Assembly (NCBI GenBank): GCA_964348675.1
Contig: CAYGDF010000002.1
Coordinates: 1 to 45,626, forward strand
Source: an uncultured Candidatus Saccharibacteria bacterium
GTDB lineage: Bacteria > Patescibacteriota > Minisyncoccia > Phycocordibacterales > UBA5272
DNA length: 45,626 bases
Direction of reading: 5' to 3'
Shown here one piece after another: positions 615 through 42,445 of the stretch; position 1 is the stretch's first letter, and each line of letters begins with the position of its first letter. The position numbers and the translations under genes are program-made. Below the pieces are notes generated by a model. The model saw only the letters and a list, made by a program, of their open reading frames with translations. It did no database searches and was not told the origin of the DNA.

Positions 615-752
615 ATTCACACCTATTCCTTTACAAGTCAAGGGCTTAGGTATAGGATTACCCTGTGGCACTGATTATTTTCAGATTCCCCACACGCCAC
701 GACATGCCGAAAGCCTGCCGTAAAAATGTACATAACAGCAGAGGATAGAGAT

Positions 753-1145
753 ATGCAAGTGTTGGAAACACCCCGCGAAGCGACCCAGACACCGGCCAAG
801 CCGAAACGCGACCCGAAATCGCTCGAGTGCAAACTCGAAGCCCTGTTCGCAGCCGGCGCCGTCTTCAACTTCGGCCAAGCCCTACCGCCGAACATCAAGG
901 ACCGCAAGTACGAGCCCACGCAACCCGCCTTGAGTGGTCCAGTGGAAATCACCACCGCTCATGACGGCGGGGCGTGGATCGGCTTCACCTTGGCAAGTGG
1001 CATCCAGTGCCGCACCAAGTCTGGCGAAGACACGAAACGCCTGCGGGAACTCATCCAGAGCCCCGAGGTGCTCACGCAAGGATACCTGGGCAATGTCGGC
1101 GTCCACCTGGACCCGGTCACCCGTCTCGCAGGTTTCCTGAACTAG
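753..1145 (+). CDS. Hypothetical protein on GC-rich cassette 1 (alternative start at 726).
   Basis: GC-rich ORF in an AT-rich context. AGAGGA lies upstream of ATG 753, and a double hairpin terminator lies downstream. I recognise no family. Confidence 0.55.
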   Translation: MQVLETPREATQTPAKPKRDPKSLECKLEALFAAGAVFNFGQALPPNIKDRKYEPTQPALSGPVEITTAHDGGAWIGFTLASGIQCRTKSGEDTKRLRELIQSPEVLTQGYLGNVGVHLDPVTRLAGFLN

Positions 1146-1170
1146 TCGTCGACCCTTCGAGCCGACGACA

Positions 1171-1198
1171 AAAGCCGCCCCCTGGCGGCTTTTTTTTG
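1171..1198. terminator. Rho-independent terminator, bidirectional (A-tract / stem / T-tract).
   Basis: aaaagccgcc-ccct-ggcggctttttttt. It sits between the cassette-1 ORF (+) and bcp (-). Confidence 0.8.
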
Positions 1199-1206
1199 TT
1201 TATATT

Positions 1207-1662
1207 TTATTGCACATCTCCCTTAACTTCTTCTGCGTGCTCTTTTGATTTCACATCTTCGTAAATTTTTTCAATCTTTCCTTTCTCATCAATCAAAAAA
1301 CTTGTGCGAGCAATTCCCATATATTCACGTCCCATAAACTTTTTCTTTCCCCATACACCGTAGGCTTCGCAAACCTTCTTTTCTTCATCAGAAAGAATTG
1401 GAAAAGGTAAATCAAATTTCTCAGCAAATTTTTTATGACTCTTCACACTGTCTGCGCTTACTCCTAAAATAACTAGTCCGAGTTTTTCAAAATCCTTATA
1501 TCCGTCTCTAAAATTACAAGCCTCCGTGGTACACCCCGGGGTATCATCTTTGGGATAGAAATAAAGTAAAACCTTTTTTCCTAAATATTGTTTAAGAGTA
1601 TGAATCTCTCCATTTTGGTCTGGGAGTTTAAATTCTGGCGCTTTGTTTCCTATTTTTATCAT
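1207..1662 (-). CDS. bcp: Thiol peroxidase / peroxiredoxin Bcp (AhpC/TSA family).
   Basis: 'YFYPKDDTPGCTTEACNFRD' is the peroxiredoxin active-site motif. ATG 1662 is preferred over the upstream TTG at 1695. Confidence 0.9.
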   Translation of the reverse strand: MIKIGNKAPEFKLPDQNGEIHTLKQYLGKKVLLYFYPKDDTPGCTTEACNFRDGYKDFEKLGLVILGVSADSVKSHKKFAEKFDLPFPILSDEEKKVCEAYGVWGKKKFMGREYMGIARTSFLIDEKGKIEKIYEDVKSKEHAEEVKGDVQ

Positions 1663-1685
1663 ATGATTAGTATTTTTGACGAAAT

Positions 1686-2114
1686 CTATGCGCAAACCTT
1701 ACACACTCCATAAATTTCAATGGAGTGTGTCGTTGTATTTTTAAACTTCCTACTTTTACTCAACATTTTTTGCACCGCACCATCGATAGAAACCCCTTCT
1801 ATTTTTTCTATGGTTTCACATTTTCCACAAACAATTTGATGCGACGCACGCCCAGTTTCTAACTCATAATGCGCGTGCCCATGATTAAAATCTAACCTTC
1901 TTAAAATACCAGCTTCATGAAGTGAAGAAAGGTTTCTATAAATTGTCGCTTGGTCGATATTTTCTTTTTTGCGAAGCAACTCTACTAGTTCATAAACCGT
2001 AATTGGTTGTTTAATTTTAGCAACTGCGTTAAGCACGCTTAGTCTGTGCGGAGTAACTCGAAGTCCCGCTTCTTGAATCAATGTTTTTAAATCTTCAGTT
2101 GAATATTTCGCCAT
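1686..2114 (-). CDS. Fur-family metalloregulator, probably Zur-like.
   Basis: Winged-helix region 'TPHRLSVLNAV...TVYELV', 'HGHAHYEL', and CxxC pairs (CGKC, CKVC). It is divergent from a ZIP transporter gene. Confidence 0.85.
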   Translation of the reverse strand: MAKYSTEDLKTLIQEAGLRVTPHRLSVLNAVAKIKQPITVYELVELLRKKENIDQATIYRNLSSLHEAGILRRLDFNHGHAHYELETGRASHQIVCGKCETIEKIEGVSIDGAVQKMLSKSRKFKNTTTHSIEIYGVCKVCA

Positions 2115-2193
2115 GTGGGTAGTATAACATTCTCTGACAACTTGCGAAAGGTTTGCATGTAAGGAATATATACTGTAAACTGTCTTAATATAT

Positions 2194-2868
2194 ATGCCAT
2201 TACTCGAACCATCACTTATCCTTACTTTTCTTAGTGCGGCGGCGCTTCCTTTGCTTGCCGTTCTTGGAATTCTACTACGTCGCAACCTTTTTCAAGGCAA
2301 GCCTAAATGGATACTTCTTATACTTGGACTGGCACTTCTCGTGTATACGGTAGTGAGCACTTTTATAGAACATGGGGAAGAATTAGGGATATCGGATATC
2401 TTCATAGGGACAATTACTGCACTAATAACACTATTCATTCTTTCCCACTTCAAACATAATCATGTCCACGCAAAAGAAGAAGGTGGTGTAAGGGGTATAG
2501 TGATAAGCGAAGCCTTTCACTCACTTATCGATGGAGCAATTATCGGAGCTACGTATCTTATTAATCCAATCTTAGGTTCGGCAGCAACCATTGGTATTAT
2601 TATTCACGAACTACCAAAAATTATCGGGACTCTCACTGTTTTTAGAAGTTTAGGGCTTTCGATTCGACAAACTATTTTTTACGGAATATGTGCTCAAATC
2701 GGCTCGCCGATAGCTGCCGTATTCGTCTTTTTACTTGGCGCACAATTTAACGAAGAAAGTTTTCATACACTTGAAATTGCAAGCATCTCATCTTTGGGTG
2801 CAATCGTCCTTTGGATTATTTATCTTGAAGTTAGATATCACAAAAAGCACAAACATCACAACCACTAG
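2194..2868 (+). CDS. ZIP-family divalent metal transporter (ZupT-like).
   Basis: Multi-TM protein with 'GIIIHELPKIIG' and His-rich segments (HFKHNHVHAKEE and the HKKHKHHNH tail). Confidence 0.7.
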   Translation: MPLLEPSLILTFLSAAALPLLAVLGILLRRNLFQGKPKWILLILGLALLVYTVVSTFIEHGEELGISDIFIGTITALITLFILSHFKHNHVHAKEEGGVRGIVISEAFHSLIDGAIIGATYLINPILGSAATIGIIIHELPKIIGTLTVFRSLGLSIRQTIFYGICAQIGSPIAAVFVFLLGAQFNEESFHTLEIASISSLGAIVLWIIYLEVRYHKKHKHHNH

Positions 2869-3908: not shown

Positions 3909-3992
3909 CGTTCTAATCTATCATCAACCCTACAAAAAGCCAAAGCACCACGTGAGAAGTGACGCGTTTGGTCATTCTCTCCCTGTGGTGCC

Positions 3993-4412
3993 TTATATTG
4001 TTGCGACTTGAAGCGCTACAATCCTTTCGAGTGCGTCTAAGCCTCTGCCCCCGTGTGGTACGACGTCATGAAGTTTCTTCTCTTGTGGTGCCGGCCACTC
4101 TTCCTCGCAGACCCAGGCCCCATCCTCCTTGTGGAAGGTAAAGATAGGCGTCACTGCATGAGGGCGAAGGTGCGAAGAGAACTCCTTGACCACGAACTTC
4201 ATTTCGTCACCATCTATCACCAGATACACGGAGTAGTCTTCCATATTCCTCTCGAAGGCAAACACGCCCTCAAGATGGAAGGTCTCTCGTTCTTCACTTC
4301 CTTTAAGTCTTCTGGGGTAGATGGCTTCCTCCCCTTCCCAACCCAAATGAAAGCGAAACTTCTCGTGATCCGGCGATCCGGTTGTTGTTACAATTGCGTA
4401 CTGGAAATGCAT
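3993..4412 (-). CDS. Hypothetical protein on GC-enriched cassette 2.
   Basis: 139-aa ORF at about 52% GC. A strong RBS (aaagggga) lies 6 nt upstream of the ATG. I recognise no family. Confidence 0.55.
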   Translation of the reverse strand: MHFQYAIVTTTGSPDHEKFRFHLGWEGEEAIYPRRLKGSEERETFHLEGVFAFERNMEDYSVYLVIDGDEMKFVVKEFSSHLRPHAVTPIFTFHKEDGAWVCEEEWPAPQEKKLHDVVPHGGRGLDALERIVALQVATI

Positions 4413-4618
4413 GGCTGTCCCCTTTCTTTTTGCCCTGCCTTACTATCAGTTTACACTTCCAAGATTATGCAAAAAGTGGACAACTTTTCGCTATTACCAC
4501 CATTAAGTGAAAATTCCTGGAGGTACGCAAAGAGCGCATGTTTTTGGAAGAAGTCGTACATTTAGTACGGCAACTGACAAAAACATGCGCTCGAGAAAGT
4601 AGATGCAGGGATTTTCGT

Positions 4619-8821: not shown

Positions 8822-11800
8822 TCAAATTACGATATTGACCAGTTTTCCAGGGATAAAAATCTCTTTCTTAGGAATCTCCGTTCCGACGTATTTCGCATAG
8901 CCATCAAGGCTTTTTATGGCTTCTAGCACCTCTTCCTTGGTCGCCTCAGCCTTAAGTGATACTTCCCCTCTTAACTTCCCATTTACCTGAAGGGCGTAGA
9001 TTAGAGTGTCATTTATGAGTTTAGTTTCATCATATTTGGGCCAATTTTCGGTATGAATCGAGGTTTCCTCCCCAATATGCTTCCAGAGTTCCTCAGCGAT
9101 AAATGGAGCAAATGGCGAAAGCACTTTTATAAACATTTTGAAGTCATTTTTTGGTACGATTTCTTCTTTTTCATACTCATTTAGACAAATCATTAAAGAT
9201 GAAATGGCGGTATTGAATGCTGTTGTCTCAATATCATCTCCAACTTTTTTAATTGTCTTATGAGTGATAGAAAGTGTCTCGTCTTTATCTCCAACTTTTT
9301 CTTTGAGAGCATAAACTCTATCGATGAAGCGACGGATTCCGATTACTGATTTATCATCCCACGCCACCGCTTGGTCAAAAGGACCAATAAACATTTCATA
9401 CATACGAAGAGTGTCTGCTCCGAACTTTTTAACAATCTCATCTGGATTAATCACGTTACCAATCGACTTACTCATCTTCACTCCTCCTTTTCCAAGAATC
9501 ATTCCTTGTGAAGTTCTCTTAAAGTATGGCTCACTGGTCGGCGTCATGCCGATATCAAATAAAAATTTATACCAAAAACGAGAATAAAGTAAGTGAAGTG
9601 TGGTGTGTTCCATACCGCCGTTATACCAAGTAACAGGAAGCCATTTACTAAGCATTTCTTTTTCACCAATCTCCTTATCATTCTTTGGGTCAATATATCT
9701 CATGAAATACCACGACGAACCCGCCCACTGTGGCATAGTGTCTGTCTCACGACGAAACTCTTCTCCGTTTGGGTCGGTGTGGAAATATCCATCCTCATCA
9801 ATCCTCCCTTTTATGTGCACCCACTCTGGTACCTGATAAAGTGGAGACTCGCCGTTATCTGTTGGTTCATATTTATCTACCTGAGGCAGTGTGATTGGAA
9901 GTTCACTTTCATGAACTGGATGAAGTTTTCCTTCCTTATCATACACAAGAGGAATCGGTTCTCCCCAATAACGCTGGCGCGCGAAAACCCAATCGCGAAG
10001 TTTTGATTTCTTTACAAATCTACCACCAACACTTTCTGTAATTTTCTTTCTAGCTTCTTCACTTTCTAACCCGTCAAAATCACCTGAATTAAATAGAGTT
10101 CCATCTTCCGTCCAAACTTCTACACCTTTTAGATACTGTTCAAATAAAAATCTATGATGCTCCCAAGTTACTAAACCTAGAACCTCTTCCTTTTTAACTT
10201 TTAGCAACTCATGCTTTCCCTCTTCTACTTCACAGGTAACTCTTTTGTCGCTGTTTACTATGACCCCATACGCTGGACCGACCGTTCTTTGATTTTTACT
10301 CTTGGTGTGACGATACCCAAAACAAATAATTGATGGGGCAATTTTTTTAGCGATAGTAATATCTGTGAATCCTGTCTCTTCTGTTATTTCACGAGTAAGT
10401 GTTTCTTTATCTGTTTCACCTTCATCAACCCCACCCCCAGCAAGATGAATATGGTTTCCTTCTTTTTCTTTAATTAAATAATAATTACCGTCCTTATCAT
10501 ATAAAATTGGGTCAACAATATTTCTATATAGCGTTTCAACTCCGTCACGCTCTTTGTCATCACCGTCCAAAACATACTTCTTTCCAATAACGTCTATTAT
10601 TTCTATTCCATACTTCTTAGCAAATTCTCCGTCTCGCTCATCGTGCGCTGGAACTGCCATAATTGCACCCGTTCCGTAAGTGGCTAATACGTAGTCCGCG
10701 ATAAATACTGGAACTTCTTTTTTGTTTCCAGGATTAATAGCCATAACACCTTCTAACTTCACTCCAGTTTTTTCTTTTCCTTCTGCAGAACGGTCAATGT
10801 CTATTTTTTGAACTGCTTCATTTAGATATTTTTGTACCTCTTCTCTATTTTTTATTTTTCCTTCTGCGAGTAACTGCTTAACAAGCGCGTGCTCTGGGGC
10901 AAGTACACAATATGTACAACCAAACAAAGTATCCGCTCTTGTTGTATAGACAGTAAATGACTCATCGCCACTTAACCACTTTCTAAATTCTCTGTCTAAG
11001 TCATTAATTAAACCCGCATAACGAAACTCATTTGCTTGATCACCTTTGTATTCTTTCGTTTCAACGTCTAGTAGAAGTGACTCCGTTGGATATCCTTCCC
11101 AAAACTTTTCCGATTGAACTCCCTGAAGAACATATTTTCTTTGTAGTGAAACAAATCCTTTTGTACCTGTAGCGTCAGTGAAAGAAACTGCGTACTCAAA
11201 ATGCGCAGGTGAGTCCCCAACTTCTTTAACCCAATTCTTCAAAAATTCAATCACCTCTTCATCAGTTGCACGTTCAGAATCAGGATTCGCCTCTTTACGA
11301 AGATGAATCATGTAACCTTTATCCTTCGGCCATTTTTCAAGCCACAAGATATGGTCAGTAGAAATTGTGGGGATACCAGTAGCCTTGAAATAGAACTCTG
11401 ATTTTAATTTCGCATTTTCTTCAAAGTCCTGTCCTTCCACAAGTGAACTGTCGTCCACCTCAACGTCATTTAAACTTAGAAACTCAACATCTAAATCTTT
11501 CGGGAAGCACGCCGTCAACATTTGAAACTTAGCATTGTTCCTTGTTCCAATTAATATTTTCTTCTTTGAAACGAAACTTTCCGTTTTAATTTTAAAATCT
11601 ATCTCGCTTCCTTCTGAAAGTCCTATCCAATTTCTTTGTTGAATTTTTATTCTTTCCAAAAATTCCGTGTCGTCTAAATCTTTGGCTAACCTCTCAGCGT
11701 ATTTTGTAATGGCAAGCATCCATTGTTCTTTATTTCTTTTCTCAACCGGAGTTCCGCAACGTTCGCATTTTCCGTCCACCACTTCTTCGTTAGCCAGAAC

Positions 11801-31455: not shown

Positions 31456-31483
31456 TTGACTTTTATTAAAAATATGCTATAAT
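31456..31483 (+). promoter_or_regulatory. Near-consensus sigma70-type promoter (TTGACT, 16-nt spacer, TGcTATAAT) driving GC-rich cassette 4.
   Basis: ttgact at 31456-31461 and an extended -10 tgctataat at 31475-31483. Confidence 0.65.
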
Positions 31484-31530
31484 TATATATGGAACAATCC
31501 CCACAACCCTCTTTCACAAAGGAAGAAACG

Positions 31531-31989
31531 ATGTTTACCAAAATTGACCGCAAGTCCCCCGAAATCCTGTCGGCTTTGGCCACGGCCCAAGTCTTCAAGA
31601 AGCAGGGCCAGGTGCAAGGCCGTCCGGCAGTCGTCGGCGAGAAAATCGCCACGGTCCTCGCCAGCGGCGCAACCGAAACCACCAACACGGCCAAGGAAGG
31701 CGACTGGGTGATGACCAACCCCTCTGGGGAACAGTACATCATCGCTGAAGCCAAGTTCCTCGGCCGGTACGAAGCCACGGAAACCCCGGGCGTCTACCAG
31801 GCCAAGGGGTACTGCCGCGCGATCCCGAACCCGTTCGGCAAGCCGGTGGAGATCCTCGCCTCGTGGGGTGAACCCCAGACCGGCGACGAGAACTGCCTGT
31901 TCGCGGATGTGTGCGACGCCGACGGCAACAATATGGGCGGGGAACCGTACATCATCGAAGCCAAAGCGTTCGCCGAAACCTACAAGTAA
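31531..31989 (+). CDS. Hypothetical protein on GC-rich cassette 4, nested inside the mobile island.
   Basis: RBS aaggaag upstream of the ATG, strong GC3 bias in this frame, and a terminator at 32010-32037 (ccaccga-tgctttg-tcggtgg-tttt). Confidence 0.7.
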   Translation: MFTKIDRKSPEILSALATAQVFKKQGQVQGRPAVVGEKIATVLASGATETTNTAKEGDWVMTNPSGEQYIIAEAKFLGRYEATETPGVYQAKGYCRAIPNPFGKPVEILASWGEPQTGDENCLFADVCDADGNNMGGEPYIIEAKAFAETYK

Positions 31990-32270
31990 GCGACGCACCA
32001 CCACCGAGAAAGCCACCGATGCTTTGTCGGTGGTTTTCATTTCAAGATAACTATATTAAGTATGTTAAAATATATGAACAATTAAATATTGGGACCTAAC
32101 CCCTTCGTAAGAAGGATATGGTCTAAAATCCGTCCAAAGTAAAGATCTCCTAGTCAGAGGCTACTTTGGACGGTTATGCTCGGAAACGGGTATAGGCACT
32201 CCCTACGGGGTTTGCCGGCGCTGGCTAGGAGTTTTTTGCTACCTGGCTATTATTAAATAAAACCGTCCAA

Positions 32271-32699
32271 ATGAGTAAGAAATTAAAAGTTCTATTAGGG
32301 GTCTTAGCGTTTTCTCTTTTTATAGTATTTATTAGTGGAGGGTTTAGCCCTTCAACTAACACAAGTGCGGATGTCGCATCTGGTCCTGCTACACCCGTAG
32401 TAGAAAAGTTGAATGTTGGGGAAGAGGGTTACGTTTCTGTGGGGACCTCCACAACTAAAGTAGTTTTAATGGGAGGCACAAAAGAAGATTATGAGGAAAT
32501 GTTTAAGCTTATTATAGCTAGGGACGATCTTGGTGTTTCTAAAATGGTTCTAGACGGAAGAGTATTAATGGTAGAACCTGGCACCAAGGTAAAGGTTATA
32601 GGCACAAAAATTGGCTCTAGAGAGGTCCGAATTATGTCTGGTAAGTATCTTAGTCAATCAGGTTGGGTGCCTAATGAAATGGTCCATCGGACCCCTTAA
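32271..32699 (+). CDS. Hypothetical secreted or membrane-anchored protein.
   Basis: N-terminal signal/TM segment 'KVLLGVLAFSLFIVFISGG'. I recognise no family. Confidence 0.6.
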   Translation: MSKKLKVLLGVLAFSLFIVFISGGFSPSTNTSADVASGPATPVVEKLNVGEEGYVSVGTSTTKVVLMGGTKEDYEEMFKLIIARDDLGVSKMVLDGRVLMVEPGTKVKVIGTKIGSREVRIMSGKYLSQSGWVPNEMVHRTP

Positions 32700-32702
32700 A
32701 CG

Positions 32703-32711
32703 TGGTATAAT
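32703..32711 (+). promoter_or_regulatory. Extended -10 element (TGgTATAAT) upstream of the TIR-like/caspase-like gene pair.
   Basis: tggtataat lies immediately after the stop of the preceding gene. Confidence 0.45.
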
Positions 32712-32746
32712 AGAGGTAGATTATCAACCTAATAACCGTCCATTTT

Positions 32747-33157
32747 ATGAATGAACCAAGAACGTTCATCAGTTTTGATTTTGATCATAACGAGAACGAA
32801 AAGATATTGTTTGCTGGGCAAGCTAAACACTCTAAAACACCTTTTAATATTAGTGACTGGTCCTCAAAGTCTCACCTGCCTCAATCTCAATGGGAAGCAC
32901 TTATTGAGGATAAAATTAGTAAGTGCCATCTTCTGATTGTGCTTGTTGGAAAGTCTATGGGATCTGCTGGTGGTGTTGCTAAAGAGATTGCATTTGCACG
33001 TAAGCACAATGTGCCGTTTTTTGGGGTGTATGTTGATGGTGCAAGCAGTTCTTACACCCTTCCTACGGGGTTAGCAAGTAACAGAGTTATTTCTTGGGGG
33101 TGGGATGATATTGCTTCTGCAATAAAGCAAATGATGGGAGAAGGTAAAAATAAATAA
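32747..33157 (+). CDS. TIR-like domain protein (DUF1863 / ThsB-like).
   Basis: 'TFISFDFDHNENEKILF', 'CHLLIVLVGKS' and 'GVAKEIAFARKHNVPFFGVYV' (candidate catalytic Glu80). It is a 136-aa single-domain protein. Confidence 0.65.
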   Translation: MNEPRTFISFDFDHNENEKILFAGQAKHSKTPFNISDWSSKSHLPQSQWEALIEDKISKCHLLIVLVGKSMGSAGGVAKEIAFARKHNVPFFGVYVDGASSSYTLPTGLASNRVISWGWDDIASAIKQMMGEGKNK

Positions 33158-33159
33158 AT

Positions 33160-34101
33160 ATGAAGAAAGCTCTAGCGATAGGTATTGATAACTACCCCAC
33201 TTCACCCTTAACGGGGTGCGCTAATGACGCTTCTTCATTTGCCGCAATTATAGAAAGTAACGGAGATGGATCTCCAAACTTTGATATTGTGGTACAGAAT
33301 AATGTTGCCACTAAAGCGGAACTAAAGAAAGCCATTGTAGAGCTCTTCAGTGGAGATAACGATACCGCTATCTTTTATTTTTCAGGACACGGCACTATGA
33401 ATGGCTTAGGTGGATATATCGTTACGCCAGACGCCCAACAATATGATGAAGGGGTTTCAATGGATGAAATTCTAGTTATTGCAAATAAGTCTAAAACAAA
33501 AAACAAGATCATAATTTTAGATTGTTGTTATTCAGGCGCTATGGGTTCACCTGAATTCTTAGGAGGATCTACTTCACAAATAAATGAAGGTCTTGTTATT
33601 CTTACTGCTTCCAAGAAAGACGAACTTGCCACTATGTCTAACGGGCGAAGCCTATTCACAGATCTTCTTCTAGATGGTCTACAGGGTGGCGCCGCTGATC
33701 TTATGGGGAGCGTAACACCTGGTAGTTTATACGCATACATTGATCAAGCGCTTGGTGCGTGGGAGCAAAGACCTGTTTTCAAAACTAACGTTACAAATTT
33801 TACTGCATTAAGAGTAGTTTCGGCAAAAGTGCCGATAGCAAATTTAAGGAAACTAACTACCTACTTTCCTAATCCTACAGATGTATATCAACTTGATCCC
33901 AGTTATGAGTTTACAAATACGGGTGTTGCTATTGATGCAAACGTGGCTATTTTCAAAGATCTTCAAAAGTTTCAGAGTGTAAATCTTGTTGTGCCAGTTG
34001 ATGCAGAATTTATGTATTTCGCTGCCCAGAATTCCAAATCTTGTAAGCTAACAGCTTTAGGGGCGCATTACTGGAGGTTAGTTAAGAATAAGCGCATTTA
34101 G
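33160..34101 (+). CDS. Caspase-like (peptidase C14 / metacaspase-fold) protease with an uncharacterised C-terminal domain.
   Basis: 'AIFYFSGHG' (His77) and 'IIILDCCYSGAMG' (Cys122/123) form the catalytic dyad. The ATG is 2 nt after the TIR-like stop. Confidence 0.8.
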   Translation: MKKALAIGIDNYPTSPLTGCANDASSFAAIIESNGDGSPNFDIVVQNNVATKAELKKAIVELFSGDNDTAIFYFSGHGTMNGLGGYIVTPDAQQYDEGVSMDEILVIANKSKTKNKIIILDCCYSGAMGSPEFLGGSTSQINEGLVILTASKKDELATMSNGRSLFTDLLLDGLQGGAADLMGSVTPGSLYAYIDQALGAWEQRPVFKTNVTNFTALRVVSAKVPIANLRKLTTYFPNPTDVYQLDPSYEFTNTGVAIDANVAIFKDLQKFQSVNLVVPVDAEFMYFAAQNSKSCKLTALGAHYWRLVKNKRI

Positions 34102-34107
34102 TATGTT

Positions 34108-35745
34108 ATGGCCTCTCCTACGTCACCAGAGGAACTCCTAGAGCTCCTAAAATCGGCCCAGAATGAAAAAGATGCTTATACCCCTGAAAAGTATAAGTAT
34201 GTAATTTATGTTCGTAAATCAACAGATGAAACCGGAAAGCAAATCCGGTCTATTGATGACCAGATAGCTGAGTGTAAGGATTTTGCAGAAAGGAATGACT
34301 TAAAGTTTATAGACATAATTGCTGAAGCAGAAAGCGCAAAGGAGCCAGGAATACGTCCTAAGTTTGCAAAAATGCTTCAAGAAATAAATACAGGTAAATA
34401 CCAAGGTATTATAGCTTGGCACCCGGATAGACTTGCTCGCAATATGAAAGAAGCTGGGGAAGTAATAGACCTTGTAGATAAAGATATAATTAAGGATCTA
34501 AAGTTTGTTAGTTTCACTTTTAATAATGATCCAAGTGGAAAACTTTTGCTTGGTATCACTTTTGCTCTATCAAAAGAATATTCTGACAAGTTAAGCATAA
34601 ATGTTAAAAGAGGTAATCGGCAAAGTATCGGTGAAGGCAAGTATGTAAACAAATCTAAACACGGATATATAAAGGATGTAAATGGTTACCTAAGACCTGA
34701 TGAAAATAATTTTGTATTACTGAAAACTGCTTTTCAAATGAGGTTAAAAGGCTCAACATTAGAGCAACTATCTGATTTTCTTATCTCTAACAGCTATTTT
34801 CATCGGAATACTGTGGACGCAAGTAAGTATTACAAGATGAACAAAGCAAAAATGCAGGTAATTCTTAAAGATCCTGTATATACAGGAGTTTTACAATATG
34901 GAGAAAATGTAGTGAACCTTATGGACCATTATGATTTTATTCCGATGGTTACCGTTAATGAGTTTATGCAGATAAATAACCTTTCGGCCAATAGCCAGTT
35001 AATTAAGTTGGCAAAGAGTTATAAGAAAGGTGAAGATGTTAAGGCTAATCTCTTACGGGACGCGGTAATTTGTGGGGAATGCAACGAACCAATGACAGCC
35101 GGTATTACGAATAAAAAGAACAAGAATACTGGCAAGATCACCAGATACTTCTATTACAGATGTGATACCGAAGATTGTATTAGGGAAGGTAAATCAGTGA
35201 GAGCAAAGGTTATAGTTAGTTATGTCTTAAATCTACTAAAGAAAAAACCTTTTTCTTCTGTGGAAAGCTATGACCACTACAAGGAGGAAATCAAGAAAGT
35301 AAACAAGGAACGTATTGTAACAGCTAAGCATAAGCTTCTTTCTCTTCAAACAGAAAGAGGAAAGGCTAATGAGAGAATTGAGAAAATTAAGGATGTTTTT
35401 CTAGATAGAGAAATAGGAGATGAGATGAAAAGGCATTACTCGGGTGATATAGAAAAGATAGAAAAGAGGTTAGTTGAAATTGAGGAAGAAGAAAAGAAAA
35501 CACGAAAAATCTATGAGAATGACAAGGAAAGTATCTTAACTCAAGAAAAGTTCCTTGAACTTATGGATAATACCCATACAATACTAGCTTCTATCAAGAA
35601 TATGGCTGAATTAGACTTTTACTTGAGAAAGTTCTTCTTGAACTTTACTATAAAAGACGAAATAGTATATAAATCAACGTTTAATAAACCTTTTGACCGC
35701 CTTGCGGACCAAAAAGTATTGAATGGTGCCCGGGAAAGGACTTGA
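34108..35745 (+). CDS. Large serine recombinase (resolvase domain, recombinase domain, zinc ribbon and coiled coil).
   Basis: 'YVIYVRKSTDETGKQ..SIDDQ' catalytic Ser region, 'AWHPDRLARN', and 'CGECNEPM...YYRCDTEDC'. Its 3' end overlaps tRNA-Leu(TAG). Confidence 0.85.
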   Translation: MASPTSPEELLELLKSAQNEKDAYTPEKYKYVIYVRKSTDETGKQIRSIDDQIAECKDFAERNDLKFIDIIAEAESAKEPGIRPKFAKMLQEINTGKYQGIIAWHPDRLARNMKEAGEVIDLVDKDIIKDLKFVSFTFNNDPSGKLLLGITFALSKEYSDKLSINVKRGNRQSIGEGKYVNKSKHGYIKDVNGYLRPDENNFVLLKTAFQMRLKGSTLEQLSDFLISNSYFHRNTVDASKYYKMNKAKMQVILKDPVYTGVLQYGENVVNLMDHYDFIPMVTVNEFMQINNLSANSQLIKLAKSYKKGEDVKANLLRDAVICGECNEPMTAGITNKKNKNTGKITRYFYYRCDTEDCIREGKSVRAKVIVSYVLNLLKKKPFSSVESYDHYKEEIKKVNKERIVTAKHKLLSLQTERGKANERIEKIKDVFLDREIGDEMKRHYSGDIEKIEKRLVEIEEEEKKTRKIYENDKESILTQEKFLELMDNTHTILASIKNMAELDFYLRKFFLNFTIKDEIVYKSTFNKPFDRLADQKVLNGARERT

Positions 35746-35808
35746 ACCTTCATGAGTTGCCTCGCTTGCTCCTAAGGCAAGTGCGTCTACCAATTTCGCC
35801 ACCCGGGC
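35724..35808 (-). tRNA. tRNA-Leu (TAG), with CCA encoded.
   Basis: Reverse complement gcccgggtggcgaaattggtagacgc a cttgc cttagga gcaag ..variable arm.. gaaggttcaagtccttt cccgggc a cca. Confidence 0.9.
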
Positions 35809-35858: not shown

Positions 35859-35895
35859 GAAAACAAAATGGACTGGTCTCACGCGACCAGTCCAT
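35859..35895 (-). terminator. Rho-independent terminator of the cassette-5 membrane-protein gene.
   Basis: Minus strand reads atggactggtc-gcgtga-gaccagtccat followed by tttgttttc. Confidence 0.75.
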
Positions 35896-35906
35896 AACCC
35901 ACGTTC

Positions 35907-37091
35907 CTAGAAATCGAACCTAAACGAACCGCGTCCGCCGTTGTGGAACGATTCCCAAATTCGCTCCGCGTCATCCCTGGTGGCTCCTGGCTCAAACTGA
36001 CGCAAGATGAGGAGAAGTTGGCGCATTTCACCTTCTTTCATGGACTGGCTCATGCCACGCAGGTCACGGCTAGCCCACTCCTGAAAGAGTCGTTGCATGG
36101 AGTCGTCCTTGAAGCCCATCCACACAAAGCCGACATTCGTGAACTTCACCCCAAAGAAGTCAGGATTCATGGATCGCAGAATCTTCGCGCCCACGTGGTC
36201 GTCCCCCTCCACTTGCCACCAAGTGAGCCGAGAGAGGAGAGTGTTCGCAGACTCATTGAACGTCTGCATCATGACTTCCTTCAAGGACTTTCTCGGGTCT
36301 TCTGCAAGGTCGTCGATCAGGTCATCAAACTTCGCCGGGTCGACGATTTTCGCCAAACCGCTTGCTTCGAACACTACGAACTTGTGGTCCATGGTTCTAG
36401 CAACGAACATTCCTGAGAATGCGATTGGCGCTAAGATGAACGCACGTGTCGAACCGAAGAAGAGTGAAAATCGGAAGAGCGCATAGAATGTCACCTGAAA
36501 CAGAAGCGGTGCCATCCCTGGTATGGCATTTATCCCCTCCTTCAGACTTTGACCCGTGCGCTTACCGCCCACGAAAGTCACGACCTCGGCGAATTTAGCC
36601 AGCACATTGCGATGGTTACCGACATACTCACTGATAAACATCACAGCGAAAACCATTCCGGCAATTTGTGGTGACGTGTTGGTCATCTTTTGCGTCCCGA
36701 AGAACTCAAAAGTAACTGGCCCAACTTTGTACACGATTGCTGAGAGGAGGCCGGCCCAAAGAAGTGCGGGTCCGATGATGAGGAGTTGTCCCACACGCGG
36801 TGAAAAGCGGAATCCATTTCGCGAGGCAACCACAATACCGCACGAGGAGATAAGGGCTCCCGCGACCGCTGTCACCGCTAGGCTGGTAAGTGGCCAGTCA
36901 AAACCGTGCGGAATCAGAGTCTCAACATCTGTCCAGAAGTGGACAAGTGCGAATGTGGCCAAGCCGGCGGGTAAACCCACGATGGCGAAAGCCACGAACT
37001 CCCTCTTGAAAAGCAGGTACAGCGCACGACTCCACATCAGCACCACCGCAATAATTGCGAGGAAGTACAGAGGAGTAATAATCTGGTTCAT
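35907..37091 (-). CDS. Hypothetical polytopic membrane protein with a C-terminal soluble domain, on GC-rich cassette 5.
   Basis: 395 aa from ATG 37091. The N-terminal half has several TM segments. High GC3. I recognise no family. Confidence 0.65.
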   Translation of the reverse strand: MNQIITPLYFLAIIAVVLMWSRALYLLFKREFVAFAIVGLPAGLATFALVHFWTDVETLIPHGFDWPLTSLAVTAVAGALISSCGIVVASRNGFRFSPRVGQLLIIGPALLWAGLLSAIVYKVGPVTFEFFGTQKMTNTSPQIAGMVFAVMFISEYVGNHRNVLAKFAEVVTFVGGKRTGQSLKEGINAIPGMAPLLFQVTFYALFRFSLFFGSTRAFILAPIAFSGMFVARTMDHKFVVFEASGLAKIVDPAKFDDLIDDLAEDPRKSLKEVMMQTFNESANTLLSRLTWWQVEGDDHVGAKILRSMNPDFFGVKFTNVGFVWMGFKDDSMQRLFQEWASRDLRGMSQSMKEGEMRQLLLILRQFEPGATRDDAERIWESFHNGGRGSFRFDF

Positions 37092-37250: not shown

Positions 37251-37574
37251 ATGGCGACAACTCAAATGGATGTGAGAGTAGAACCGCGGTGGGGATTCTG
37301 GAATATCATCTCCAGCGCTATGGGGATACTGCTTGTGGTAGGGGTTCTGCTCTATGCATTTTTCAGGGCATTCCTCTGGGTGTGGCCCACACTCACATGG
37401 CTCTTGCCGGTGAGCCTCTACGTTGCATTCACCACGTGGATGCTGTACAAGTCAACCCAAATACCTGACGAAGTCGCGAGGAGCCACCGCCAGTACCAAA
37501 CGGTGATAGTGGTCCTGCGAACATTCATAATCCTGATCATTTTCTTCGCGAACACGCGATCGGTCGGGCCATGA
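37251..37574 (+). CDS. Hypothetical small 3-TM membrane protein on cassette 5.
   Basis: RBS aaaggtgga upstream of the ATG, and a hairpin terminator at 37580-37632. Confidence 0.6.
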   Translation: MATTQMDVRVEPRWGFWNIISSAMGILLVVGVLLYAFFRAFLWVWPTLTWLLPVSLYVAFTTWMLYKSTQIPDEVARSHRQYQTVIVVLRTFIILIIFFANTRSVGP

Positions 37575-37659
37575 AAAAGAAGGCGCGATCGAAATGTTGT
37601 TTACAACAATTAGAAAATCGAACGCGCCTTTTGATATGGATTTTTTAATAATATAAAAG

Positions 37660-37687
37660 TTGACATTATCAATATTTAGTGTAGAGT
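37660..37687 (+). promoter_or_regulatory. Sigma70-type promoter (TTGACA, 16-nt spacer, TAGAGT) for the 37801-38394 two-gene operon.
   Basis: ttgaca at 37660-37665 and tagagt at 37682-37687, in an AT-rich patch between GC-rich genes. Confidence 0.5.
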
Positions 37688-37800
37688 TTTAAATAGGAGT
37701 ACGTTTAATCGATTACGTGTTCCTAAGGTTGGAGGCGGACAGCCGTCTCCAGTTTTTAAAATCAAACACCGGTCCAACGGGCCGGAGGAGAAAGAGCATA

Positions 37801-38067
37801 ATGGTCGATCCGGCCACCAAGGCCGCCATACGCCACGAGCGTGCGAAGATTGTTGCGAAAGCGGCAATAGCGTCAGTGATCGGTGCCTGCATTTTGGGAA
37901 CCGTGCTGATTTACTCGATCCACGAGGAGGGAACTCCCGCGGGTCAGGCCAACTTGAAGGAGCGCGAAGAAACACGTCGCTTCAACAAGCAAAAAGAGGT
38001 CGAGCTTGAGCAAATCAAGCTCGAACGCGCTAAACTCGAAGCTACACAAGCGGCTAAGGAGAACTGA
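37801..38067 (+). CDS. Hypothetical single-TM protein with a charged coiled-coil tail, on cassette 5.
   Basis: RBS ggaggag upstream of the ATG, TM segment 'AAIASVIGACILGTVLIY', then a K/E-rich helix. Confidence 0.6.
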   Translation: MVDPATKAAIRHERAKIVAKAAIASVIGACILGTVLIYSIHEEGTPAGQANLKEREETRRFNKQKEVELEQIKLERAKLEATQAAKEN

Positions 38068-38394
38068 ATGGCTGATACAGCCCATGGCGAAGGCGAAAAG
38101 AAGCCTTCACACTTCACCCCAATTATCCTGGCGGCGGCAGTACTCGCGCTCATCGCGTTTGTCCTGCCCATGGCGGGCACGGGCATCGGGGATTTCGTGC
38201 GCAACATCGGCAACGGTGTGGCCGAGGGTGCGGGAAACATCAACTCGCAACGCAACTCCCTCATCGCCATCGGCGTGGGTGCGGGCTTCATGATTGCTGC
38301 ACTCTTCGGTCTGATAGCCTTGGGCTTGCACTGGATGGCAGCTGGAACCAGACCGCCTGCACCACCTGCACCCCCGGCCGGCGGACACCACTAA
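38068..38394 (+). CDS. Hypothetical 2-TM Gly-rich membrane protein with a Pro-rich tail, on cassette 5.
   Basis: The ATG directly follows the stop of the preceding gene (tgaATG), so the two are translationally coupled. Confidence 0.6.
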   Translation: MADTAHGEGEKKPSHFTPIILAAAVLALIAFVLPMAGTGIGDFVRNIGNGVAEGAGNINSQRNSLIAIGVGAGFMIAALFGLIALGLHWMAAGTRPPAPPAPPAGGHH

Positions 38395-39523: not shown

Positions 39524-41749
39524 ATGAAATTACTTATCGTAGAAAGCCCGTCGAAGGCTAAAACAATTGCGAAATATTTAGGAAGCGAGTACGAAGTACG
39601 CGCCTCTGTTGGTCATATCAGAGATTTGCCAAAGAGTAATAAGAAAGCAATCGATATCGAAGGTGGTTTTATTCCTCACTATGAAGTATCTCCTGGGAAA
39701 GAAAAAGTTGTAAGCGAACTTAAATCCCTTTCAAAAAAGGCTTCAGAAATTCTCCTCGCAACCGACCCCGACCGTGAAGGAGAGGCTATCGCTTGGCACA
39801 TAAAAGAAGCAATTGGTCTAAAGGATGCCAAACGTGTTGCCTTCCATGAAATTACCGAAAGTGCTATTAAAGAAGCGATTAAACACCCTCGTGAAATAGA
39901 TAACAATTTAAAAGAAGCCCAGGAAGCACGTCGCGTACTAGATAGACTTGTAGGTTATGACTTGTCTGGAATCATTTGGAAAAAAGTTCGATACGGACTT
40001 TCTGCAGGTCGTGTACAATCCCCCGCGCTTCGCATAGTCATGGAACGCGAACGCGAAATCCGCGCGTTTATTCCTGAGACATATTTCGTCTTAGCTGGTG
40101 AATGGAAGACAGAAGGAAAAATAAAAGAAAGCAAAACCTACACCCTTGCTATGGAGTGCGAGGAACAACCAAAAGTAAAAGATGAGGCCGAGAGAATTGT
40201 AAAACTTGGTCGCGCACACGAATGGGAAGTAACCGCACTTGATAGTACAGAGGTCTCTCGCTCCCCTCGTGCGCCATTTACTACTTCCACCCTTCAGCAA
40301 ACCGCTAGTTCACGTTTAGGATACGCTCCATCACGCACGATGGGTATCGCGCAGAAACTTTATGAAAAAGGTTTGATTACCTACATGCGTACAGACAGCA
40401 CCACTCTTTCAAACCAAGCGCTTGGTGAAATCGCCACAACCGTTGAAAGCATGTTCGGTAAAAATTTCTTGGAAGTTAGAACATACAAAACAAAATCAAA
40501 AAACGCCCAAGAAGCCCATGAAGCGATTCGTCCGACTCATGCGAGCACTCGTAATGGCGGAACAACTGACGATGAAAAAAGATTATATTCTCTAATTTGG
40601 GAAAGAACTGTCGCGTCACAAATGAAAGATGCGAAATTAAAGAGAAGCAAAGTAACTACAAACATTATAGGCTCAAAAGAAAAAATCCCAGACTTTTCTG
40701 TAACTGGTTCAGTGGTAACTTTCCAAGGATGGTTAATCGCTGATCCAGATGCCAAAGGTGATGATGTACAACTTCCAGAACTTACTATCAGCGACCCACT
40801 TAAACTTCTCACCCTTCAATCAATAGAAAAGCAAACTCAACCGCCTTCACGTTATACAGAAGCTGGATTAATCAAAGAACTTGAAAAGCGTGGAATCGGA
40901 CGCCCTTCTACTTATGCTTCTATCATTTCTACTATCGAAGACCGTGGGTATGTAGATAAGATAAATAAAGCACTTCATCCAACAGATACAGGTGAAGTGG
41001 TTACGACATTTCTAGAACAAGAACTTGGTCAGTACATTTCAGATACTTTCACGGCAGACATGGAAGACAAGTTGGATAAGATTGCCAATGGTGAAGCAAC
41101 ATATTTAAAAACTCTCACGGATTTCTACGGACCATTTTTGAAAGATGTTAAGAGTAAGGACAAATTAGAAAAAGCGACAAATCTAGGTGAAGCACCTGAC
41201 GATTTGCTTTGTCCACTTTGTGATTCAAAGATGGTGATTAAACTCGCAAAGAATGGAAAGTTTTATTCCTGTTCAAAATATCCAGAGTGTAAGGGTGCAC
41301 GTAAAATAGACGGCACAATAATGGAAGGGCCAAAGATGCTAGGAAGAGAATGTCCGAAGTGTGGAAAAGGAGAACTCATGGAGCGTGACGGACGATACGG
41401 TAAATTCATAGCGTGTTCAAACTATCCAAAGTGTAAATATATAGAACAAGATGAAGAACTAAGAAAAGCCAACTCAACCGGAGTAAGTTGTAATAAATGT
41501 AAAGACGGATACATGGAAGAAAGAAAAGGACGTTTCGGGGTATTCTATTCTTGTTCAAACTACCCTGACTGTAAACACATTATAAAAACCAGACCCACTG
41601 GCCATCGTTGTAATTACAAAAAAGCCGACGGCACTATTTGTGGAGAACTAATGATGGAAGGGACAAAGACGATTCCAGAGCGTTGCAGTGATAAACTCTG
41701 CCCCAATCACAACCCCCACAAGCTCGAGCAAGATAAGAGTAAGAAATAA
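39524..41749 (+). CDS. topA: DNA topoisomerase I with C-terminal zinc-ribbon repeats. The last roughly 25 codons are a GC-recoded replacement.
   Basis: TOPRIM 'LLIVESPSKAKTI' and 'DPDREGEAI', catalytic Tyr region 'ITYMRTDS', and four CxxC...CxxC fingers. Confidence 0.95.
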   Translation: MKLLIVESPSKAKTIAKYLGSEYEVRASVGHIRDLPKSNKKAIDIEGGFIPHYEVSPGKEKVVSELKSLSKKASEILLATDPDREGEAIAWHIKEAIGLKDAKRVAFHEITESAIKEAIKHPREIDNNLKEAQEARRVLDRLVGYDLSGIIWKKVRYGLSAGRVQSPALRIVMEREREIRAFIPETYFVLAGEWKTEGKIKESKTYTLAMECEEQPKVKDEAERIVKLGRAHEWEVTALDSTEVSRSPRAPFTTSTLQQTASSRLGYAPSRTMGIAQKLYEKGLITYMRTDSTTLSNQALGEIATTVESMFGKNFLEVRTYKTKSKNAQEAHEAIRPTHASTRNGGTTDDEKRLYSLIWERTVASQMKDAKLKRSKVTTNIIGSKEKIPDFSVTGSVVTFQGWLIADPDAKGDDVQLPELTISDPLKLLTLQSIEKQTQPPSRYTEAGLIKELEKRGIGRPSTYASIISTIEDRGYVDKINKALHPTDTGEVVTTFLEQELGQYISDTFTADMEDKLDKIANGEATYLKTLTDFYGPFLKDVKSKDKLEKATNLGEAPDDLLCPLCDSKMVIKLAKNGKFYSCSKYPECKGARKIDGTIMEGPKMLGRECPKCGKGELMERDGRYGKFIACSNYPKCKYIEQDEELRKANSTGVSCNKCKDGYMEERKGRFGVFYSCSNYPDCKHIIKTRPTGHRCNYKKADGTICGELMMEGTKTIPERCSDKLCPNHNPHKLEQDKSKK

Positions 41750-41883
41750 ACTGGCTCTGGAAAGTAGACAACCTGCGTTGTCTACGACGTCTTTGTCTGG
41801 CGGAGAGTTATGAGGCTAGCAAGCCGAATCGCGAGCCGGGGTCGAGGAAATTTCGAGCGACGGCGAGAAATTAACCGTGACCG

Positions 41884-41958
41884 AAGACGATTCCAGAAAG
41901 ATGTTCTAACAAAACTTGTCCAAATCATAATCCTCATAAACTAGAAACTAAGAAATAG
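41884..41958 (+). pseudogene. Displaced native 3' end of topA (AT-rich remnant).
   Basis: It encodes KTIPERCSNKTCPNHNPHKLETKK*, compared with the functional end KTIPERCSDKLCPNHNPHKLEQDKSKK*. The 14-nt repeat aagacgattccaga occurs at 41666-41679 and 41884-41897. Confidence 0.8.
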
Positions 41959-42100
41959 AATTTCAAAATTCTTTCTTATTAACCTTTACCATCGAACTGT
42001 ACGCTGTCTTTTTCTGCTGAAAAAGCATCTCGTTCTCGCACCGTCGCGCTCCGAAAGCCAGTTCTCACGGAAAAGGTTGGTGTAGTCTAATACAAAATAT

Positions 42101-42129
42101 TTGCATTTCATCTTCATTTTTTATAGAGT
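42101..42129 (+). promoter_or_regulatory. Putative promoter (TTGCAT, 17-nt spacer, TAGAGT) for the small RHH-like gene.
   Basis: ttgcat at 42101-42106 and tagagt at 42124-42129. Confidence 0.4.
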
Positions 42130-42177
42130 ACTTCCTAACCCCTGTTCTCAGGCTTTCAACTTTGACGGAGTATTGCC

Positions 42178-42357
42178 ATGATTACCATCAGAATCCCAAA
42201 GCGAGTTAATGACGCTGTCGATTTCTACAGGTTGGTAGAAATCGCAGAGATACGCTTCAACCAGATGAGCCACGACGAACGCGTTGCTTTGCTGGGTAAA
42301 TTGTCCGAGCAACGCAACAATAGTCTGCGCGAACTGGTACAACTGCTCGCCAACTAA
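42178..42357 (+). CDS. Small (59 aa) ribbon-helix-helix-like protein on GC-rich cassette 6.
   Basis: RBS ggag upstream of the ATG. 'MITIRIPKRVNDAVDFYRLVE' has a beta-strand-then-helix pattern. The plus-strand terminator at 42398-42428 fixes the orientation. It falls below the ORF-track cutoff. Confidence 0.5.
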   Translation: MITIRIPKRVNDAVDFYRLVEIAEIRFNQMSHDERVALLGKLSEQRNNSLRELVQLLAN

Positions 42358-42397
42358 AGAAACGAGCTGCGACGGTCGTCGCGACAAACCCGCCGCC

Positions 42398-42428
42398 AAA
42401 GCCACGCGCAGACGTGGCTTTTCTTTTT
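42398..42428 (+). terminator. Rho-independent terminator.
   Basis: aaagccacg-cgcaga-cgtggcttt followed by tctttttg. Confidence 0.8.
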
Positions 42429-42445
42429 GCTATACTAATTTGATT

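Follow-up and report, generated by a model that had tools for sequence, protein, structure and literature searches.

The 45,626-nt stretch analyzed here ("the window"; positions 1 to 45,626 of contig CAYGDF010000002.1 in GenBank assembly GCA_964348675.1) is a dense example of a two-class gene organization. GC-rich genes led by Shine-Dalgarno (SD) sequences lie between AT-rich housekeeping genes of what, judged by gene content and synteny, is the chromosome of a Candidatus Nomurabacteria bacterium (Paceibacteria; candidate phyla radiation [CPR]/Patescibacteria). We refer to the open reading frames (ORFs) of the GC-rich cassettes as c1 to c10; labels of the form "L001" denote related loci fetched for comparison. 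Our preferred reading, to which we give a probability of roughly 0.6, is that the cassettes are old, lineage-restricted, moron-like accessory units that have maintained a GC-rich, SD-led style in an AT-rich, leaderless CPR genome.

According to this reading, the window would hold at least nine self-contained transcription units, with about ten small genes in all, scattered between core genes. Each unit would consist of a sigma-70-like promoter that includes a -35 box, a 5' leader, an SD, and a GC-rich ORF, and in eight of nine cases a terminator of its own that would insulate it from its neighbors. The core genes would be of a leaderless type, with a -10 box about 6 nt before the ATG and no SD. 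Except for c5, the units would have been inserted between genes before the present congeners split and would have been inherited vertically since then. Their GC content might be kept up by selection that acts on codons or mRNA, by biased gene conversion where loci evolve fast and may recombine, or by replenishment from an unseen pool.

A sequence-only reading of the same DNA had described GC-rich, SD-bearing cassettes in an AT-rich backbone. GC z-scores, tetranucleotide usage, and GC content at third codon positions (GC3) all confirm this. GC was measured in 300-nt windows (median, 0.393; robust standard deviation, 0.04), and that of the backbone was 0.385. The main GC-rich segments (Table 1) have tetranucleotide correlations with the backbone of -0.35 to 0.18, compared with 0.53 or more for every one of 200 control backbone pieces. 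The list of segments needed two changes. The block at 24290-26035 is two GC-rich genes with a 46% GC spacer between them, and the last pair, at 41680-42428, is weakly atypical in composition (the tetranucleotide correlation of 41990-42428 is 0.41). GC3 is 0.56 to 0.87 in the cassette ORFs versus 0.24 to 0.41 in 40 backbone genes, and at the third positions of c1, c3, c4, and c5 the frequency of C is 0.47 to 0.56 and that of T is 0.06 to 0.11. The GC-rich cassette ORFs have strong three-base periodicity in one frame. By their coding signal the cassettes are genuine protein genes, and they total about 6.4 kb, or 14% of the window.

The start signals also fall into two groups. With -5 kcal/mol as the weakest anti-SD duplex accepted, an SD-like site was present at all 10 cassette starts (-5.6 to -9.5 kcal/mol) versus 4 of the 37 backbone starts (P = 2e-7 by Fisher test; P = 2e-6 by Mann-Whitney test), with some cassette starts being choices of the sequence-only reading and those of c1 and c7 being backed by orthologs. 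The SD motif is kept in every ortholog: AGAGGA for c1, AGAAAGGRRA for c2, GGAG for c3, AGGAG for c4, and AAAGG/AAGGAG for c6/c7. In the c1 leader the SD motif is conserved and the remainder is variable among orthologs.

We extended this analysis to 132 Paceibacteria loci (2.25 Mb with 2182 ORFs of at least 80 amino acids [aa]), taking the GC3 excess of each ORF over the median of its locus. A strong SD was found at the first start of 5% of ORFs with an excess below 0.05, 18% of those with an excess of 0.05 to 0.15, and 29% of those with an excess of 0.15 to 0.25 (Spearman P = 2e-19 for the trend). The null frequency, at internal start-like codons, was 9 to 10%, and strong SD-like sites were present at 5% of core starts, fewer than the 9% seen for internal ATGs. 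A -10 box, defined by at least five of six matches to TATAAT, ended exactly 6 nt before the start of 10% of 1697 core ORFs, compared with a background of 1.2% and with 0 to 2% in the GC3-rich class, which bears out the suggestion that the backbone is of a leaderless type. Such a box lay 4 to 10 nt before the start of 25% of the core ORFs. Because the GC3 excess tracks SD use and the peak of -10 boxes at 6 nt is confined to the core, Paceibacteria genomes have two classes of genes, distinct both in composition and in mode of initiation. The GC3-rich ORFs of the relatives have a median length of 134 aa versus 292 aa and are mostly orphans, and they are not enriched for membrane proteins (38% versus 35%; P = 0.36). 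SD use was no more frequent in the GC-richer Paceibacteria loci than in the others, so their core genes are unlikely donors. We also observed a recurrent GC3-rich, SD-led family near the same region of relatives (L029, 1907-3562; L012, 3272-4666; L027, 4136-5086), whose members have 317 to 552 aa and a Lys-rich N terminus (MGKTFKERKG...).

Most cassettes had been described as self-terminated. This holds for eight of nine units, in which an intrinsic-terminator-like hairpin and T-tract follow c1, c2, c4 (two, past a 330-nt spacer), c3, c5, c6, c7, and c10. No terminator was found between c8-c9 and dprA. Upstream of c4, c5, and c8 there are sites that match the promoter consensus at 10 to 11 of 12 positions; relatives retain the one at c4. 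We infer that the promoters, SDs, and terminators are functional.

Comparison with sister genomes showed that c1 to c4 occupy matching loci in all congener contigs that were recovered and that c6/c7 do so in L001 and L003, which agrees with the intergenic placement proposed earlier. The c1 to c4 junctions are identical in independent Logan, ENA, and JGI assemblies (SRR31375405, SRR30728736, SRR22388057, SRR22388086, SRR22388231, ERZ27247837, and JGI 3300042876), and the copies have diverged naturally. L081, L084, and L166 all come from run SRR31375405 and are probably parts of one second genome, in which c1 through c4 occupy the four loci that they have in the window. The cassettes are absent from more distant relatives (MnmA identity of 77% or less).

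The orthologs are old by the measure of synonymous divergence. The flanking NifS, Bcp, and RNase T proteins have 85 to 97% aa identity, with a synonymous divergence (dS) of 0.77 to saturated and a ratio of nonsynonymous to synonymous divergence (dN/dS) of 0.01 to 0.11. For c1, the aa identity is 48 to 82%, dS is 0.40 versus L084 and at least 1 versus L083 and L085 (up to 1.24), and dN/dS is 0.3 to 0.5. For c2, the identity is 61 to 81%, dS is 1.07 to saturated, and dN/dS is 0.10. For c3 and c4, the identity is 60 to 70%, dS is 0.32 to 0.49, and dN/dS is 0.5 to 0.8. With dN/dS at 0.1 to 0.8, all compared cassettes are under some purifying selection; it is strong for c2, and c3 and c4 are fast evolving.

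Despite this divergence, the c1 to c4 orthologs keep a high GC3: 0.69 to 0.79 across all four copies of c1, 0.51 to 0.61 among the copies of c2, 0.85 to 0.88 for c3, and 0.87 for c4 (in L081 and L082, with a dN/dS of 0.64 to 0.72). GC3 of the genes that adjoin c1, c3, and c4 is 0.22 to 0.44. We calibrated a two-state (GC/AT) decay model on the synonymous third positions of the flanking genes. In this model, each lineage should have lost 35 to 65% of any GC3 excess since the split, and even an ancestor with a GC3 of 1.00 could be no higher than 0.59 to 0.75 today; c1, c3, and c4 are higher than this ceiling. Furthermore, G-to-C and C-to-G changes account for 18 to 50% of the synonymous third-position differences in c1, c3, and c4, compared with 2 to 3% in the flanking genes, and a high share of such changes is a prediction of a GC-rich stationary state. 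This modeling indicates that the GC-rich, SD-led style is a maintained equilibrium and no fading trace of import.

Several points weigh against the view that these are old units with a maintained style. The GC3 of c2 is compatible with slow neutral decay. The c6/c7 homologs in L001 and L003 have a GC3 of 0.40 to 0.58, compared with 0.24 to 0.35 for topA, and the values in L001 are as low as 0.40 to 0.43, so GC is not equally maintained everywhere. The families are small (three to five sequences each, with most contigs being 1 to 3 kb), dS is imprecise near saturation, and the decay model takes the cassettes to have the age of the split and the mutation regime of the backbone. The total of promoter-like sites in the window equals the shuffle expectation; since they are no commoner than in shuffled sequence, the promoters are best called plausible. 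An anti-SD motif was detected in 48% of Parcubacteria 16S sequences (PMC9297842). With about half of them lacking a detectable anti-SD, the SDs of the cassettes are predicted signals in this cell, and no 16S gene, and no 16S 3' end, was found in the window or in 179 related loci. Finally, because no original donor was found, calling the units acquired rests on composition and on the empty sites of c2, the one cassette for which insertion into an ancestrally empty site was shown.

Those empty sites are at the RNase T-mnmA junction, which is conserved across Paceibacteria. The spacer is 59 to 190 bp ("empty") in at least 10 distant loci and elsewhere holds unrelated inserts of 300 to 1435 bp, several of which are SD-led small secreted proteins. 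Inserts in three loci (L086, 9196-9765; L099, 6405-6719; L100, 9181-9432) encode small Pro/Tyr/Gln-rich proteins with signal-peptide-like N termini on the opposite strand, and those in L099 and L100 are SD led. The hot spot has thus taken up distinct small secreted proteins in different lineages. The spacer between topA and the next gene also varies, from 0 to 1.2 kb in relatives. We infer an outside origin for the units. The GC-rich donor lineage that the sequence-only reading had envisaged did not appear among 5.8 billion proteins, which contained no donor-like homolog of c1, c2, or c3 (c4 and c6 to c10 were outside that search). Each of the three had two to four homologs, every one that was looked up was in the same AT-rich CPR context, and these families are essentially confined to this genus-level clade. 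No match to c6 was found in phage, plasmid, or IMG/VR collections.

The units do not belong to one mobile-element family, as had been thought possible, because a repeat search around the cassettes found no shared ends, attC-like sites, direct repeats, or common inverted repeats. Signatures of mobility (an integrase, a tRNA link, or flanking repeats) were not found for c1 to c4 or c6 to c10 and are confined to the c5 island. Pfam, PHROGs, NCBIfam, and PADLOC searches with the ten cassette proteins matched only c5, a PGDYG protein, so the statement that none belongs to a recognizable family stands for the other nine. Weak matches to SPATA3, Yip1, DUF1617, Band_7 (0.011, one member), and OhrB (0.33) were treated as noise. 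Nothing significant came from the PDB when it was searched with sequence profiles of c1, c2, and c6, and no Rfam family was detected within the cassettes at either the gathering or the E-value threshold.

Other readings were also weighed. Paceibacteria might keep two separately maintained expression "dialects" in one tiny genome, an AT-rich, leaderless core and a GC-rich, SD-led accessory set that selection holds at a compositional equilibrium of its own; this set could then be a translationally separate regulon that is switched as a block. We consider this unlikely. If it were true, block switching might occur, e.g., upon host contact or stress, via 30S/SD-dependent initiation. If the 16S rRNA of the lineage has no anti-SD, the signals might instead be tuned for a GC-rich, SD-using partner cell after nucleic acid transfer.

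It is quite unlikely that recombination with an unseen GC-rich pool (plasmid, phage, or partner) keeps renewing the cassettes, with the conserved promoter, leader, and terminator flanks as anchors; such renewal would hold GC high and give the alleles a fast-evolving look. Noncoding flanks and leaders are indeed more conserved than the ORFs, c3 and c4 have a high dN/dS with a dS below that of the flanking genes, and DprA is encoded, so DNA uptake is plausible. However, no copy was found outside a chromosomal context in the collections searched, and the synonymous saturation of c1 equals that of its flanking genes.

Repeated and recent import from a GC-rich donor (a host, a partner, or a mobile element), not yet ameliorated, is improbable for the set as a whole. 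The codon style of c1, c3, c4, and c5 is like that of GC-rich Proteobacteria or Actinobacteria, the units are at variable intergenic sites, and the c5 family occurs in Proteobacteria phages and on a plasmid, with c5 itself on an integrative island. However, c1 to c4 and c6/c7 are at the same loci in other species, synonymous sites of c1 and c2 are saturated with GC3 unchanged, the few homologs of c1, c2, and c3 that were looked up have an AT-rich context, and there are no integrases, repeats, or tRNA links outside the c5 island. For c1 to c4, recent import is largely refuted by orthology and synonymous divergence, and we keep it only for c5. The earlier reading is partly supported: the units look foreign in composition, at least the RNase T-mnmA spacer is a hot spot for insertion, and c5 is on an island.

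We think it very improbable that the GC-rich segments are structured noncoding RNAs with ORFs as by-products of a low stop codon density. Many ORFs do overlap on both strands inside the islands, and the c4-c3 spacer and c3 leader resemble conserved structured RNA. However, a single frame shows the periodicity, dN/dS stays under 1 and falls as low as 0.10, and orthologs retain the reading frame, the start codon, and the SD, with no Rfam match inside the cassettes. A chimeric assembly or engineered construct, which the sharp composition steps and neat promoter-gene-terminator modules had brought to mind, is hardly credible, because the recurrence of the junctions in independent assemblies with natural divergence excludes a chimera for c1 to c4, and GC-rich ORFs occur in many related metagenome-assembled genomes (MAGs).

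We return to the old accessory units and to what each might encode. Their predicted products are secreted, membrane, and small soluble proteins: c3 has a signal peptide, c6 to c9 are transmembrane (TM)-like, and c1, c2, and c5 are small and soluble. The c4-c3 pair is notable for its noncoding parts. c4 is a basic, low-complexity protein of 141 aa (GC3, 0.84), and c3 has 184 aa, a signal peptide, and a Cys-rich motif (GC3, 0.87). The spacer after c4 is more conserved than both ORFs, and seven predicted pairs are kept via two-sided changes (in only three sequences). The c3 leader (24924-25050; about 125 nt) is nearly invariant in five genomes, and its last hairpin is predicted to be able to pair with the SD. 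Neither the spacer nor the leader has a match in Rfam. That these elements are more conserved than the ORFs suggests that the module is regulated at the RNA level. Only four c3 homologs were found among the 5.8 billion proteins, and they come from four different projects (L081, L082, L168, and L169). The leader is present in all four, and in L081, L082, and L168 c3 is followed by the start of nifS, as in the window. With the window copy, the five family members are all upstream of nifS, and the location of the module in the four contigs is between the DUF4446 gene and nifS. L081 and L082 also hold a c4 homolog, the TTGACA-17-TAGTAT promoter, and the spacer.

c1 is a 130-aa protein (GC, 0.59; GC3, 0.76) with a conserved HDGGAWIGFTL motif, and its SD, AGAGGA, is about 6 to 14 nt upstream of the start. 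All three homologs (L083, L084, and L085) are upstream of a convergent bcp, and two also follow a thioredoxin-like gene. A HMMER scan of 1.84 billion proteins with a c1 profile gave 12 representative clusters, ten of which are small proteins of 111 to 147 aa; an HDGG/HDGK-x-W motif is common to the seven cluster sequences read. The two c2 homologs (L166 and L167) are directly upstream of mnmA, with RNase T on the other side in one contig. c2 has a GC3 of 0.56, and its AlphaFold2 model (pLDDT, 75) predicts a beta-barrel with a C-terminal helix. Foldseek searches of the PDB with this model and with that of c1 (pLDDT, 69) gave no match with an E value below 0.1.

The cluster of c6 to c9 was found only in the closest relatives. 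c6 has 394 aa, with N-terminal TM segments and a soluble domain (GC3, 0.63). Its homologs in L001 and L003 are in the same place, with 37 to 41% identity, a GC3 of 0.40 to 0.44, and a retained SD. c7 has 107 aa (GC3, 0.67), is divergent from c6, and by eye has hydrophobic TM-like stretches; its homologs in the same two loci carry an AAGGAG(G) SD. In both loci, the c6/c7 homologs are between the tRNA-Leu side and dprA. c8 (37801-38067; GC3, 0.63) has one TM segment and a coiled coil, and c9 (38068-38394; GC3, 0.68), whose start overlaps the c8 stop, has two TM segments and a Pro-rich tail. L001 has GC-rich small membrane proteins at the c8/c9 place, and c9 is weakly similar to one of them (27% identity; E = 0.001). 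c10 (59 aa; GC, 0.48; GC3, 0.60) is the weakest member of the set. Just past the topA terminator hairpin, a 44-codon Arg-rich ORF (41810-41944, plus strand) has a GGCGGAGAG site 6 nt upstream and is possibly a further SD-led mini-cassette.

c5 is the exception, because by its gene context it rides a serine-recombinase island at a tRNA. It is a PGDYG protein (PF14083; E = 3.3e-12; 47.1 bits versus a gathering cutoff of 27), and an alternative leaderless start is at 31489, 5 nt past the TGcTATAAT box. Its nearest phage and plasmid relatives, with 33 to 37% identity, are in Xanthomonas and Yersinia phages (249 to 385 kb), an uncultured phage, and a Robbsia plasmid; IMG/VR gave one weak locus. The island as a whole is AT rich, and c5 alone is GC rich. 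The block looks like a candidate defense island in a CPR genome. The island also encodes a LOOT RNA, which holds TGGACGGTT. AACCGTCCA, the complement, is present at just two other places in the window, 32261-32269 and 32734-32742, which is 1 nt and 4 nt upstream of the starts of the uncharacterized ORF and the TIR gene. These three AACCGTCCA/TGGACGGTT matches compare with 0.29 expected, and 0 of 100 shuffles reached three. The LOOT RNA may therefore base-pair with the initiation regions of the next two genes. No LOOT RNA was found beside the caspase homologs on IMG/VR contigs.

Table 1. Coordinates of GC-rich segments, cassette units, and the c5 island in the window
Feature	Coordinates	Strand	Details
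GC-rich segment	640-1198		GC 0.587, z 4.9
GC-rich segment	3945-4435		GC 0.517, z 3.1
GC-rich segment	24290-24925		GC 0.656, z 6.6
GC-rich segment	25490-26035		GC 0.639, z 6.2
GC-rich segment	31490-32037		GC 0.600, z 5.2
GC-rich segment	35860-37100		GC 0.530, z 3.5
GC-rich segment	37218-37574		GC 0.515, z 3.1
GC-rich segment	37700-38560		GC 0.562, z 4.3
GC-rich segment	41680-41883		GC 0.520, z 3.2
GC-rich segment	41990-42428		GC 0.476, z 2.1 (weak)
c1 unit	630-1193	+	Promoter-like site 630-658; ORF 753-1145; terminator 1170-1193
c2 unit	3945-4430	-	SD AAAGGGGA; ORF 3993-4412 (139 aa); terminator 3965-3945
c3 unit	24284-25050	-	SD GGAG; ORF 24369-24923; terminator about 24333-24284, z = -5.2
Spacer after c4	25096-25489	-	Long hairpins, then terminators 25155-25133 and 25125-25096
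c4 unit	25490-26042	-	Promoter TTGACA-17-TAGTAT (26042-26014); conserved leader hairpin; SD AAGGAGA; ORF 25490-25915
c5 unit	31456-32040	+	Promoter TTGACT-16-TGcTATAAT (31456-31483); ORF 31531-31989; terminator about 32000-32035, z = -3.8
c6 unit	35868-37091	-	SD GGGGG; ORF 35907-37091; terminator 35895-35868
c7 unit	37251-37632	+	SD; ORF 37251-37574; hairpin and T-tract about 37578-37632, z = -4.0
c8-c9 operon	37660-38394	+	Promoter TTGACA-16-TAGAGT (37660-37687); leader of about 110 nt; SD GGAGGAG
c10 unit	42178-42421	+	SD GGAG; ORF 42178-42357; terminator 42398-42421
c5 island	30732-35808		About 5 kb; absent between the same flanks in L004 and L027
LOOT RNA (island)	32093-32212		Rfam RF03000, 73.8 bits
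ORF (island)	32271-32699		Uncharacterized product
TIR gene (island)	32747-33157		ThsB-like; among Pfam/PHROG/PADLOC matches
Caspase C14 gene (island)	33160-34101		Phage relatives; 43-49% identity on 9 IMG/VR contigs
Large serine recombinase (island)	34108-35745		Adjoins tRNA-Leu(tag), 35724-35808

The backbone between the cassettes is ordinary. It includes mnmA, bcp, a thioredoxin-like gene, RNase T, and a cysteine desulfurase (nifS here), as well as a DUF4446 gene, genes for LeuRS, ClpB, MsrA/MsrB, and DprA, topA, and five tRNAs. TopA (39524-41749) is 90% identical to that of Ca. Nomurabacteria MAG UBA11704 (L001) and 78 to 90% identical to those of about 27 other Nomurabacteria/Paceibacterota MAGs, and the gene order of the dprA-topA neighborhood is common to the window and its Nomurabacteria relatives. 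This housekeeping backbone, the TopA match, and the synteny argue for a CPR/Patescibacteria chromosome and for neither a phage nor a construct. No phage structural genes were found among the neighbors of the cassettes in the window, and the window has no ribosomal protein cluster. An exact-protein lookup of the c1 and MnmA proteins of the window found no record.

Three further observations concern the backbone. The leucyl-tRNA synthetase (8822-12292, minus strand; 1156 aa) has an unusual domain insertion, with Pfam matches to a Ham1-like domain (residues 246 to 374) and a NUDIX domain (residues 592 to 649) inside the synthetase. Five tandem 21-nt repeats at 13936-14065, within an ORF at 13686-14099, encode an acidic, E/D-rich repeat of seven residues. 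Two partial copies that resemble the 3' part of tRNA-Leu(taa) (28840-28923) are at 28671-28702 and 29585-29616 and have a common GGTCACAAA tail; one is 164 bp from the tRNA, and the other adjoins the start of a DUF2238 gene. These copies may be remnants of old attachment sites.

CPR/Patescibacteria are a huge and mostly uncultured group of episymbionts, and their host interaction genes are largely uncharacterized. As the window shows, CPR genes can be divided by base composition and type of start signal into core genes and accessory genes specific to a lineage. This sorting offers a simple route to candidates for interaction genes; many are small, and gene callers trained on the AT-rich core easily miss them. 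Furthermore, a GC-rich style that is kept through saturated synonymous divergence in a 38% GC genome is counter to the expectations that foreign genes ameliorate and that atypical genes are AT rich. The cassettes are therefore a clean natural setting in which to ask what maintains bacterial GC content against AT-biased mutation, selection or biased gene conversion. Our reading predicts either that SDs are still read by CPR ribosomes for a special set of genes or that these SDs are read elsewhere. We found no open paper that ties Parcubacteria or Patescibacteria to leaderless genes or GC-rich islets, and none describes maintained GC-rich, SD-led islets. The cassettes are kin to known atypical accessory genes, with an unusual and testable twist.

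The closest likeness is to phage morons, which Hendrix and Juhala reportedly described in 2000 as additional genes, each with a promoter and a terminator of its own, located between conserved genes of a phage. Like morons, the cassettes are units of one or two genes with their own terminator, between conserved neighbors, and with divergent base composition. Unlike morons, they are in a CPR chromosome beside housekeeping genes with no prophage, their sites are conserved, and their odd composition persists. Like Bacteroidota and other SD-poor systems, this genome has a core without SDs and a minority of genes with strong SDs, but here the genes led by SDs also stand apart in composition and are lineage specific. 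In the extreme version of the "dialect" idea, the cassettes would be a bacterial analogue of the genes of transfer DNA (T-DNA), which carry the expression signals of the recipient.

The cassettes also resemble acquired genomic islets, with a restricted distribution, atypical GC content and codon usage, variable hot spots, and empty sites in relatives. Horizontally acquired atypical genes are said to ameliorate with time, a model associated with Lawrence and Ochman and with Daubin and Ochman. Atypical genes have a GC content "frequently lower" than that of the genome (PMC6028130). Unlike these usual AT-richer genes, the cassettes are 10 to 30 points GC richer and have not ameliorated despite saturated synonymous divergence. 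They are like integron cassettes in being small, mostly single genes with no assigned function, but they have no attC-like shared repeats, array, or integrase, are scattered over 42 kb, and have putative promoters of their own. Islands with a serine recombinase next to a tRNA are matched by the c5/LOOT/TIR/caspase block only, which is bounded by a recombinase and tRNA-Leu and absent from relatives.

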